A DNA stretch of 31,094 nucleotides from a virus, in the UHGV virus genome UHGV-0087733. One strand, given 5' to 3'. This document shows positions 6,001 through 9,000 of this stretch, piece by piece. Position numbers: made by a program. The number at the start of each line of letters is the position of its first letter. Within the stretch, counting starts at the first letter, position 1.

Positions 6001-9000
6001 GCGTATAGCCAACATCATGGCTGACATCAAAACCGCTGGATCGCGTTTCCATAACCCGCATACCCGGAGGCGAATTCACAAAAGATACCTTGATCTCACC
6101 ATCAACTTTTGGCACAGAAGCTTTGTTAATCATGAAGGGATTCGAGCCTGTGGCATCGGAGGCGTTGTTTGCCTGAGCCGGATCCACCACCGGATAAGGA
6201 GTGTATCCCCGTGGCGGTATTCCCGTCCCATAAGCATCATAAGCACCCGCGCCCCACTGCGCCGAGTTAATGGCATCGACCGTGTCACCGGAACTGTCGG
6301 TAAACCATTCAATAATCGGCTTCAGCTTATCCCACATATCCTGAAACCACTTAACAACCGGTCCCCAGTTATTGATCACCATCCCAAGCGGCGACCAGGC
6401 AAAAACCTTCTTCAGAAGTTCCCAACCTGCCTCAAAATAAGGACCAATGGTTTCCCAGAGCTTCTTGAAATAAGGTCCGACAACATCCCAGTTAGTGATA
6501 ATTAATCCCGCAGCCAGAGCAATCGCCGTCGCAATCATGCCAATCGGCGTCATCGACATAATCCTGCTGACAATACTGATGGCACTGCCCACGCCCATCA
6601 ATCCCAGTTTCAGAATCGCAAGACCGGCAGCAAGCCCGACGACGCCGCGAATAACCCGGGGATTTTCATCCGCAAACTTCGTGAATTTCTCCCCCAACTC
6701 CCCCAGCCATTGTGTGATATTTTTAGCGTCACCAGAAAATGCGCCGCCAATAGCCGCAAGGCCGTTAGTTGCGGTCCCTGTCATTGCCTCCCACAGGTTG
6801 GACAGCGTACCAAGCTGTGCCTGAACACGTTTATTCAGGCTGGCCTGTTTATTCATCTTCTGCTGGATCTGATCGTAGCCATCCTTTCCTTTATCGATTA
6901 GTGCATTGACCACCTGAAGGGTTTCGGCATCATCACCAAATATTGCCTTAAGTACACCTGTTCGCTTAACGTCGGTCAGTTTTCGCAGCTTTGCCAGTTG
7001 CCTGAACATGTTATCAAGACCGCCAAAACTTCCTTTGCCGTCAGTAAAATCGAGCTGTACCCCGAGTTTCTGGCGGGCCATAACTTTATTAACGTCCCTG
7101 ATTTTCTTAACGCTTAATCCGGACTGGATAACTTTTCGCAGGGCATTACCTGCCGACTCCCCGTTCATCCCCATCTGATCCATCATGACGCTGATGGGGG
7201 CAAGGCTCTGTGCAGCCTGAAGACCATCCTTGTTCACCATCTTCAGAACAGAACTGGTTTTAGTGAAGAAGGACAACATGTTGGTATCGTCAACGCCCAG
7301 ATAAAACGCCTTCTGGATAGTGTCGAACAGCCCCATCATGTCTTCTGACGCCGTTCCGGTAGCATCCTGCATCTTTGCAGCAAACTCAGCAGCCGCTTCC
7401 GGTGTTTTTTTCAGTTGTACCGCAAGATAAGCTGTCGCTTTACCCACACCACCCAGAATGTTTTCTGCCGGGATCCCCTGACGCACCAGCATCTGCATCA
7501 TGTTCTGGAAATCAGCCGTTGTACCGGGTAGCTGGTTACCCAGGCCAATAGCCAGTTTATTGATGTCCTGAAAGCTCTTTCCAACCTCGCCATTCGCATC
7601 CATCATGGCGACTTTCAGCCCGGTGGCGGCGTTTTCCTGATCGGCATAAGATTTCAGGGAAAGCGTCAGACCCGCTGCCAGTCCGCCACCAAGCGCCAGC
7701 CCACCCTGTGACGCTTCTTCCGCCTGGCGTTTAAATCCCCGGATTTTCTTTTGCATTTTCGACAGCGCGGGAGAAAGCCTGTCGACACCGGTGATCAACG
7801 CCTTAAGCTCAAATTCAGCCATGTGTGCGTTTCTCCTGCTCTATCCTGTTTGCCTGACTGACCAGTAAGGGAATTTCACTGATCGGCATATTCAGCAATT
7901 CGAAAGGATTAATGCGCCAGTAGCTGGCGCAGTCAAAGAAGCGATCAGTGAGGTATTCAGCCGTCAGGCCTGGAGGAAAAAACCAGCCACAAGCCACGCC
8001 GCTGCATTCAGGTCTGCCGGAGACATCTGGTCGACAGAGCTTTGCGGCACTTTCGCCAGCCGCACAATGTATTTCGACACCACATGCGCCAGAAGTTTGA
8101 CTGACTCATCCTGATTCATCTGGTAGGGATACCCCAGCTCGCGGACATCCTTCCCGGTGGGCTCATCAAACTCCAGTACGGAGAGTGTCTCACCATGAGC
8201 GATAATCGGTTTCTTTAACTCAAGCTCTTTCATTACTGGTAATCCCCTTCTTCACCGTGGAACTCAAGATCAACCGTGCCTTCTTCGGCATTATGGTTCG
8301 CTTCGCCGTGCAGCCAGGCGGACGACAATACATAGACCTGACCGTTCGCCAGCTCGGCAGTGATGGTCATCTCATCAGACGAGGTGATTTTGCTCACCGG
8401 AAAATTCTTCGGCACCTTGAAGGTCCCTTTGACATAAGGCGCACGGTGAGTTTCCTTGCGGTCCACTGAACCGTCCAGGCCGATGATGTCATCATTGACC
8501 GTCCTGTTCATGGGCACCTCAATGCCGCCGGTCAGCGATAGCTGTTGACCGTCAATTTTGAAATAACAGGTTCCCCCGATACGGGCCATTATGCAGACTC
8601 CTCTGAATACTGAAGACGGAACTGGTTAACCACGGCAAAAACACGCAACTGGTTAACATAGTCAGGCGGGAACAGCGTGTTCAGGCGGTTCGGATCGCTG
8701 GCATCACGCTCCACAACCAGGTACTGCTTAAACAGTTCGTAGTTTTCCACGATCCCCGCACGCTCAAGCTGACGGTAGGTTGCCAGCAGTTCCCCTTTGA
8801 TCACCGCCGGTGTGACAATCGCCTGACCGGGACCAAAGCGGGTACCGTCGCTGGCAAGCTTGTGACGCCCGTACTTACTGGTAATGACGGATTTCAGTTT
8901 GCGCAGCACATACGCGCTGGTATGCAGCGTCTCGCTGTCGAGGTAAACAAGCGACGGTTAAGCTCCTGCTCCCAGTTCGTCACCCACGGCATCATCGTGT

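Follow-up and report, generated by a model that had tools for sequence, protein, structure and literature searches.

A frameshift between the major tail and tape-measure genes is widely conserved (PMC5009743, PMC2628397, PMC3091744). It has been described for gpG/gpGT of phage lambda (Levin et al. 1993; Xu et al. 2004, 2013, 2014, as summarised in PMC5009743) and for gpE/gpE+E′ of phage P2, where a −1 frameshift lies in the FETUD tail operon (Christie et al. 2002; Xu et al. 2004, as cited in PMC3091744). The P2 record annotates the E/E+E′ −1 frameshift at GGT TTT TTG, and the literature cites it as demonstrated. The frameshift-prone heptamers measured in E. coli include U_UU.U_UU.C and U_UU.U_UU.U (PMC4066793).

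We analysed a 31,094-nt stretch of viral DNA (UHGV-0087733, hereafter the window), in which a tail assembly chaperone gene is carried on the minus strand of an SfV-like prophage. According to Pfam, this gene is flanked by the tail tube and tape-measure genes. The tail tube protein gene (8233..8589, minus strand) encodes 118 aa matching PF10618 Tail_tube (E=2.4e-33), and its TAA stop shares bases with the chaperone ATG (TAATG). The chaperone gene (7964..8233, minus strand; TGA at 7964-7966) encodes in the zero frame a P2 gpE-like short form of 89 aa, whose coordinates and ...AGFFLQA terminus are as first reported for this locus. Residues 4-86 of the short form match positions 2-78 of the 79-position profile PF10109 Phage_TAC_7 (P2 E, Mu 41, '14') with 57.6 bits for a cut-off of 25 (E=1.3e-15), and RefSeq labels the 89-aa gene of E. 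coli 'phage tail assembly protein'. The tape measure protein gene (5990..7822, minus strand; ATG at 7820-7822) encodes 610 aa and matches PF10145 (E=9.8e-27). The tail module is otherwise Mu-like: its sheath and tube are of Mu L/M type, and it includes a DNA_circ_N protein. The prophage of the window has lost the genes for the head together with most of the sheath gene; the frameshift site may be a relic out of use in this particular element.

The original prediction placed a slippery heptamer in the last codons of the chaperone gene, and both its position and its phase were confirmed. T_TTT_TTC occupies 7976..7982 of the minus strand in X_XXY_YYZ phase, in frame with the chaperone and four codons ahead of the stop, the zero-frame codons being GG[T] TTT TTC (Gly84 Phe85 Phe86). 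The overlapping ORF 7815..7997 is indeed in the −1 frame, since (8233−7997) mod 3 = 2. In all, 96 codons of the −1 frame are open, up to its end at 7815, and the +1 frame is shut after 16 codons. Past the heptamer, with base 7976 re-read, the −1 extension (7815..7976, minus strand) comprises 53 codons, PPGLTAEYL...EKRTHG, followed by TGA. The long form, encoded by 7976-8233 and 7815..7976 with a junction reading ...AGFF|PPGLTAEYL...EKRTHG, is 139 aa in length and not about 136 aa as had been estimated. It does end with ...THG just inside the tape-measure start, as proposed, with its TGA at 7815-7817 and the tape-measure ATG at 7820-7822, an 8-nt overlap reading ATGGCTGA. The predicted long form contains the peptides FFDCASYWR and INPFELLNMPISEIPLLVSQANR in the extension and VPQSSVDQMSPADLNAAAWLVAGFFPPGLTAEYLTDR across the junction. 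In-phase X_XXY_YYZ heptamers occur six times in the 2,644 codons of the phage genes of the window (about 0.2% per codon), and only the one at 7976-7982 combines proximity to a gene end with a long open −1 frame (53 codons versus 1-14).

The nearest known system is P2 E/E+E′, not Mu gp41. The N-terminal domain falls within PF10109 in both (57.6 bits here, 47.5 bits in P2), the slip site lies at the same Pfam position (profile 78 of 79, where the domain ends), and GGT TTT TTN and a −1 shift are common to the two. The products measure 89 and 139 aa here and 91 and 142 aa in P2, the long form overlaps the tape-measure gene (gene T in P2) by 8 nt in each case, and neither site is adjoined by a stimulatory hairpin. 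However, the last base of the heptamer is G in P2 and C here, the zero-frame stop is 21 nt past the site in P2 and 9 nt here, and the extension lacks a match to PF06528 (Phage_P2_GpE), none being found at E<=10 for the window or for three other groups. The extension of Bordetella phage PBb002 alone matches PF06528, weakly (E=0.011). Whole-protein BLASTP against P2 gave E=0.72, and a profile-profile comparison of the extension with P2 E′ (hhalign) gave a non-significant E=0.036 with a probability of 1.4%. Both tests of whether the extension is homologous to P2 E′, by HMM and by profile-profile comparison, were non-significant.

The original prediction suggested a comparison with lambda G/GT and Mu gp41. 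The order tube-chaperone-tape measure, the overlapping frame and the conserved in-phase site of the G/GT-type arrangement were all found. As in lambda, the chaperone gene sits between the major tail and tape-measure genes, and the lambda and P2 sites are likewise without stimulatory elements. However, there is no detectable sequence similarity to lambda, whose tail is non-contractile and whose heptamer is G_GGA_AAG, unlike T_TTT_TTC here. In the closely related tail module of Mu, gp41 has the same place, with M (tube) on one side and gp42 (tape measure) on the other, and its match to PF10109 is marginal (24.7 bits, cut-off 25). However, gp41 is a 144-aa protein of PF23746 without an in-phase heptamer, the ORF that follows it uses the +1 frame, which is open for 55 codons, and the shift is reported as −2. 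Recoding of the Mu gp41 type was rejected for the window, where the chaperone matches PF10109 only and those 16 codons are all that is open in the +1 frame.

Conservation of the site was assessed in 82 unique homologous regions falling into three divergent groups. An in-phase heptamer was found at the same codon in 78 of them: T_TTT_TTC in 39 SfV-like regions, T_TTT_TTT in 25 SfIV/ST64B/P27-like regions and T_TTT_TTC in 14 Burkholderia regions (13 IMG/VR sequences and BgVeeders33). Three of the other four carry 1-nt insertions that fuse both frames, and the last is a spurious match. The zero-frame stop lies 9, 63 and 30 nt past the heptamer in the SfV-like, SfIV/ST64B/P27-like and Burkholderia groups respectively; thus it is the site that is conserved and not the stop. 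Three further lineages carry the heptamer, as TTTTTTC in Pseudomonas phage DVM-2008 and as TTTTTTG in Bordetella phage PBb002 and Pseudomonas phage PG1. The codon preceding TTT ends in T, whatever the amino acid (GGT, CGT, AAT, AGT, GAT or CCT). In 37 unique SfV-like sequences the heptamer is invariant, including the synonymous third base of Gly84. Invariant degenerate amino acids account for 69 codons, and the codon itself is fixed in just 12 of these, among them Gly84, Phe85, Phe86 and Pro87. Homologues with as little as about 40% identity, and P2, keep the heptamer and a −1 extension that ends at the tape-measure start. Homologues without a slippery site had been named beforehand as evidence against the frameshift; the T run was found missing only in the UNVERIFIED record of Paraburkholderia phage IPK, which has GGC TTC TTC at the site and retains the −1 extension. 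As judged by these comparisons, conservation of the heptamer across divergent homologues is far beyond chance. An alignment of seven sequences spanning all groups diverged too much to seed a genome scan, and sub-alignments took its place; a scan of metagenomes returned near-identical sequences only, leaving the diversity unchanged.

The −1 extension is kept as a protein sequence across groups. In the SfV-like set, the site entropy by codon position is 0.23/0.15/0.77 upstream of the heptamer in frame 0 and 0.27/0.16/0.59 downstream in frame −1, with variation downstream highest at third positions of the −1 frame. The same switch of variation from frame 0 to frame −1 at the heptamer is observed in the other two groups. 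In all three groups, purifying selection acts on the protein encoded by the −1 frame, starting at the heptamer. The extension matches phrog_32181 (E=4e-40), a PHROGs family of unknown function. A sequence search of the PDB yielded only spurious light-harvesting-complex matches, and a single-sequence AlphaFold2 model, with a pLDDT of 46, was set aside as a basis for fold search. The 139-aa product had no entry in a collection of 15 billion proteins.

Membership of PF10109, the conserved heptamer, the conserved extension and the P2 annotation together support the original prediction of a programmed −1 frameshift, and ribosomal slippage at T_TTT_TTC very probably yields a second, longer chaperone product. 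Most ribosomes would stay in the zero frame and stop four codons past the heptamer, giving the 89-aa chaperone. A minority would slip by −1 on U_UUU_UUC: the tRNA-Phe in the P site would move from UUU to UUU, and the one in the A site from UUC to UUU. The slipped ribosomes would read 53 more codons in the −1 frame, giving the 139-aa form that ends within the tape-measure start. By analogy with P2 E/E+E′ and with lambda G/GT, for which the division of labour is presumed to be the same, binding of the tape measure protein would fall to the N-terminal domain common to both forms and recruitment of the tube protein to the extension, and tail assembly would need a fixed ratio of short to long form. 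In the G/GT-type arrangement, tail assembly requires both products and the virion contains neither. This mechanism and its biological logic are textbook, with nothing new in principle.

The canonical spacing for a downstream stimulatory hairpin or pseudoknot was covered by folding of the region and by an alignment fold, and no such structure was found. The first 51 nt fold with −6.7 kcal/mol (z=+0.6), and neither hairpin nor pseudoknot lies 5-9 nt past the heptamer. Upstream, no Shine-Dalgarno sequence is conserved, the 20 nt 5′ of the heptamer being variable and without GGAG. A −1 site of the dnaX or IS3 type with a 3′ stimulator was rejected, neither the stimulator structure nor a Shine-Dalgarno-like sequence about 10 nt upstream being found. 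A long-range helix proposed by RNAalifold between GCCUG, 6 nt past the heptamer, and CAGGC, about 110 nt downstream, was also discarded: its mere 5 bp are disrupted in 2 of 10 sequences, and covariation is absent. With neither a stimulator 5-9 nt past the heptamer nor a conserved Shine-Dalgarno ahead of it, the efficiency of frameshifting is probably low.

The homopolymeric nature of the site, T6 here and T7 in the SfIV/ST64B/P27 group, raises the alternative of transcriptional slippage, in which RNA polymerase would add a U within the T6 run and normal translation of the edited mRNA would be the main source of the long form. One extra T would produce an identical fusion, one public contig with T8 instead of T7 does fuse the frames, and UUUUUUU has been flagged as a possible source of transcript indels (PMC4066793). 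However, the runs on which bacterial RNA polymerase is described to slip efficiently have 9 A or T, and shorter heteropolymeric sites such as T5C5 require an adjoining nascent-RNA hairpin (PMC5009743). The run here has only 6 T with no inverted repeat 5′ of it, the heptamer ends in C, T or G according to lineage and thus does not always extend the run, and both the annotation of P2 and the citing literature treat the homologous site as one of translational frameshifting. We consider it very unlikely that the long form arises mainly in this way.

Still less probable is the absence of any recoding, with ORF 7815-7997 being either a small gene that has a start of its own or an open frame without meaning, so that the 89-aa protein alone would be of consequence. 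Public annotation agrees with this reading, leaving a 141-nt gap in RefSeq and a 60-aa hypothetical protein in other records; PHROGs keeps the ORF as a family of unknown function, and in-phase heptamers do arise by chance at the per-codon frequency given above. However, the GTG at 7997 in the window has no Shine-Dalgarno sequence, and in 21 of 23 representative homologues the −1 frame lacks a start of its own (ATG, GTG or TTG) upstream of the site and of the conserved residues. Moreover, the selection on the −1 frame protein starts at the heptamer in three groups, and the synonymous sites of the heptamer itself are frozen. Finally, it is hardly credible that the T run is a phase-variable tract at the DNA level, or that a single 139-aa gene was broken into two ORFs by mutation or by an error of sequencing: five public contigs do join both parts in one frame through 1-nt indels (an extra G ahead of the T run in two, NCBI KDU22203.1 and KEL88680.1; T8; an extra G 40 nt downstream; an upstream indel), but these indels differ as errors or sporadic mutants would, and T6 with two separate frames occurs in 77+1 of the 80 viral contigs, in 79 of the 80 from metagenomes and in 12 species-level genomes, as well as in the independently sequenced phages SfV, SfII, SfI, EPP-1 and AH07.

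The frameshift is unannotated in the RefSeq/GenBank records of SfV, SfII, SfI, SfIV, ST64B and phiP27. The module is present in about 1,100 of 5,426 complete E. coli genomes, and the frameshift is unannotated there too. In public records the product is divided in two, as "tail assembly protein" and "hypothetical protein". We found no paper describing the site in the SfV-like phage group; the word frameshift is absent from the SfI and SfIV genome papers, and SfV, ST64B and P27 are not among the entries of the PRFect supplement. A P2-type T_TTT_TTN is, by the present comparison, common to PF10109 chaperones in otherwise Mu-like tails, which is useful for frameshift predictors. The homologues also provide natural variants for studying the requirements of the site, with C, T or G as last base and a zero-frame stop 9 to 63 nt away.

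A perfect and conserved 8-bp hairpin or palindrome, UGCGCCAG-CUA-CUGGCGCA, is predicted by folding at 7913..7931 of the minus strand, inside the −1 extension. It begins 44 nt 3′ of the heptamer, outside the spacing of a stimulator, and occurs once in the window. No Rfam family was matched in 7700-8300, and no terminator-like site was found on the strand of the chaperone gene. A role in ribosome collision is implausible because zero-frame ribosomes stop 9 nt past the site and would never reach the hairpin. It seems rather doubtful that the hairpin has a function, as RNA or as DNA, of a type undescribed for tail chaperone frameshifts; if it had, it could act as a far-off modulator of frameshifting, or as a processing, stability or attenuation signal setting tape-measure expression. 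The hairpin sits in the gap beyond the short ORF, which would be mostly untranslated. Among Enterobacterales relatives, the synonymous sites of its stem codons Cys102, Ala103, Tyr105 and Arg107 are fixed and the loop base is variable.

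All genes treated here are encoded on the minus strand, beginning with the small (11794-12297) and large (10064-11797) terminase subunits and the portal (8894-9964). A tail sheath gene reduced to a C-terminal fragment (8589-8909) comes next, followed by tail tube (8233-8589, PF10618), an 89-aa ORF (7964-8233), tape measure protein (5990-7822, PF10145) and Mu-N-like DNA-circularisation protein (3977-5305). The 89-aa ORF matches PF10109 "Phage tail assembly chaperone proteins, E, or 41 or 14" with 57.6 bits. Its 3′ end reads GCT GGT TTT TTC CTC CAG GCC TGA, which places TTTTTTC (7976-7982) in X_XXY_YYZ phase. 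Around this heptamer, 96 codons are open in the −1 frame and only 16 in the +1 frame. The coordinates of the original prediction all agreed with the sequence. The fusion, expected at about 136 aa, is however 139 aa long when base 7976 is read twice (...AGFF at the shift, continued by PPGLTAEYL...EKRTHG), and its TGA (7815-7817) lies 8 nt within the tape-measure gene, as ATGGCTGA.

In-phase heptamers are common in the phage genes of the window (6 in 2,644 codons), and only the one at 7976-7982 stands at a gene end with a long open −1 frame after it. Comparison gives the decisive evidence that it exceeds chance. Homologous loci were taken from phage records, IMG/VR, one-genome-per-species contigs and metagenomes, giving 82 unique sequences of the region. 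The SfV-like group, to which the window belongs, comprises 39 of them, from Escherichia, Shigella, Edwardsiella, Buttiauxella, Scandinavium, Citrobacter, Atlantibacter, Kluyvera, Erwinia and Pantoea, and carries T_TTT_TTC with the zero-frame stop 9 nt after the heptamer. The SfIV/ST64B/phiP27-like group (25 sequences) has T_TTT_TTT with the stop 63 nt after it, and the Burkholderia group (14; 13 IMG/VR sequences and BgVeeders33) T_TTT_TTC with the stop at 30 nt. The remaining four are three sequences with 1-nt insertions fusing both frames and one spurious hit. Protein identity between the three groups is only 39-45%, and the heptamer is found at the same codon in all of them, after the two invariant Phe residues that close the PF10109 domain. 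More distant PF10109 genes carry T_TTT_TTC (Pseudomonas phage DVM-2008) or T_TTT_TTG (Bordetella phage PBb002 and Pseudomonas phage PG1). The residue preceding Phe-Phe varies by lineage (Gly, Arg, Asn, Ser, Asp or Pro), but its codon ends in T in every case (GGT, CGT, AAT, AGT, GAT, CCT), and without this T the P-site tRNA could not re-pair.

A single genuine exception was encountered, Paraburkholderia phage IPK (UNVERIFIED record, ~1440-1700), which has GGC TTC TTC and no T run. It retains the conserved −1 extension reaching the tape-measure start, and its −1 frame opens only ~10 nt ahead of the zero-frame stop (...GAG GGC GCG TAA). Thus either IPK uses another shift site or the record contains an error. 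Single-nucleotide indels joining chaperone and extension in one frame were also seen in the public contigs L010/L011 (1740-1760), L104/L105 (1440-1500) and L202. They consist of a G inserted ahead of the T run, T8 replacing T7, a G inserted 40 nt downstream, and an indel located upstream. Under accessions KDU22203.1 and KEL88680.1, NCBI lists the product of the first variant, 139 aa long, as 'mu-like prophage FluMu gp41 family protein'. These single-frame contigs may be sequencing errors or natural mutants making the long form only.

Site entropy was calculated for 37 SfV-like sequences of equal length (minimum pairwise nucleotide identity 62.5%). The three codon positions of frame 0 have mean entropies of 0.23/0.15/0.77 upstream of the heptamer; past the zero-frame stop, those of frame −1 have 0.27/0.16/0.59. 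The same switch is observed in the other two groups, and in SfIV/ST64B/phiP27 frame −1 is dominant already within the 63-nt stretch open in both frames. A motif, ...(F/Y)W(R/K)(I/L/V)(N/D)P.E...A.RI..., is common to the extensions of all groups. Judging from these alignments, the −1 frame is really translated. Between the preceding −1 stop and the heptamer, 21 of 23 representatives contain no ATG, GTG or TTG in the −1 frame, and the GTG at 7997 in the window lacks a Shine-Dalgarno sequence and is not conserved; an independent start of the extension would therefore be impossible. Only 12 of the 69 SfV-like codons with an invariant degenerate amino acid never vary, four of them being Gly84-Phe85-Phe86-Pro87 (GGT TTT TTC C(CT)).

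The closest known case is E/E+E′ of phage P2, whose record annotates a −1 frameshift at GGT TTT TTG (E, 91 aa; E+E′, 142 aa) and whose E+E′ likewise stops 8 nt within gene T. The N-terminal domains of P2 and of the window both match PF10109 to profile position 78 of 79, so that the two slip sites are homologous in position. However, the P2 extension matches PF06528 (E=1.2e-21) and that of the window does not, and profile-profile comparison of the two extensions was not significant. Mu gp41, suggested initially as a comparator, proved a poorer one: it is a PF23746 member that matches PF10109 only below threshold, it contains no in-phase heptamer, and it is paired with a second ORF in the +1 frame, the shift being reported as −2. 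Thus the tail module combines Mu-type sheath, tube and baseplate genes with a P2-type chaperone and frameshift.

The prediction of a programmed −1 frameshift is upheld by the position of the heptamer, at the same codon across divergent homologues, and by conservation of the −1 frame as protein. The best-supported reading is that two tRNA-Phe would slip in tandem by −1 on U_UUU_UUC. When all heptamers were measured in E. coli, H_HH.U_UU.Y was among the most efficient, and U_UU.U_UU.C and U_UU.U_UU.U gave >0.1% shifting without a stimulator (Sharma et al., PMC4066793). The downstream hairpin or pseudoknot that was to be looked for is not found at the canonical position, either by folding against shuffled sequences or with RNAalifold: the 51 nt past the heptamer fold at −6.7 kcal/mol (z=+0.6), no better than shuffled. 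A long-range 5-bp RNAalifold helix was rejected, since it is disrupted in 2 of the 10 sequences and shows no covariation. The upstream 20 nt are variable and contain no Shine-Dalgarno-like motif. Lambda and P2 need no stimulatory element, in agreement with the absence of one here, and a shift efficiency of a few percent is predicted. Slippage of RNA polymerase would yield an identical product, but is unlikely as the main route to it: efficient bacterial slippage is seen at stretches of 9 A or T, and a shorter motif requires an adjacent upstream hairpin (PMC5009743), which the heptamer lacks. In functional relatives, ribosomal −1 frameshifting very probably gives the 139-aa long form. Lambda G, like the G portion of GT, binds the tape measure protein, and the T portion binds the major tail protein; their ~30:1 ratio is critical and neither is present in the virion (PMC5009743). 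By analogy, we infer that the short and long chaperone forms would function as G and GT.

Four other frozen codons (Cys102, Ala103, Tyr105 and Arg107) form the arms of a perfect 8-bp hairpin or palindrome at 7913-7931 on the minus strand, UGCGCCAG-NUA-CUGGCGCA as RNA (TGCGCCAG-CTA-CTGGCGCA in the window). All synonymous sites of the stem are frozen in 37 unique SfV-like sequences, the sole variable base being the first loop nucleotide (C/T/A), and the same pattern is observed in 80 metagenome loci. The hairpin starts 44 nt past the heptamer, within the −1 extension, and is therefore too far away for a classical stimulator. It occurs once in the window, has no T run 3′ of it and no Rfam match, and is not obviously present in the SfIV/ST64B/phiP27 and Burkholderia groups. 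A stem without any variation offers no covariation by which an RNA could be told from a DNA element. Of the features described here, the hairpin alone could conceal something new.

The segment is 100% identical to E. coli prophages and is carried by ~1,100 of 5,426 complete E. coli genomes; its proteins share 98-99% identity with those of the Shigella serotype-converting phages SfII, SfI and SfV. In RefSeq and GenBank, annotation is limited to the 89-aa "phage tail assembly protein", and the 141 nt up to the tape-measure gene are left blank; one phage record lists the −1 ORF as a separate hypothetical protein, and the frameshift is marked in none of the RefSeq, GenBank or phage records examined for the segment. 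Exact look-up among ~15 billion proteins returned the 89-aa protein from >500 contigs and the 60-aa −1 ORF, named "hypothetical protein", from ~1,000, with no exact match for the 139-aa product. In PHROGs the extension is phrog_32181, a family of unknown function. The cassette is an unannotated new member of a well-known class.

Alignment with SfV revealed a 5.2-kb deletion joining portal codon ~341 to the final quarter of the sheath gene (window ~8942-8945, minus-strand ORFs 8894-9964 and 8589-8909; SfV 3414 joined to 8651). With it the protease, major capsid, connector and neck genes are lost, together with most of the sheath gene, so that the prophage is defective; the deletion junction was found in none of the 5,426 E. 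coli genomes. The frameshift cassette itself is intact but, sitting in a defective element, is probably out of use in UHGV-0087733. Window 13144-15000, 20510-21083, 22291-23821 and 26402-31094 have no blastn match to SfV and are probably mosaic replacements (lysis, regulatory and integration regions) or host flank. Relative to SfV, 658 bp (5330-5987) are inserted between the tape-measure and DNA-circularisation genes, with a G+C content of 32-36% against ~52% in the flanks. This insertion, likely a moron, contains a minus-strand ORF (5396-5908) for a 170-aa protein whose N-terminus resembles a signal peptide and which matches nothing in Pfam, and is present in 85 of the 5,426 E. coli genomes.
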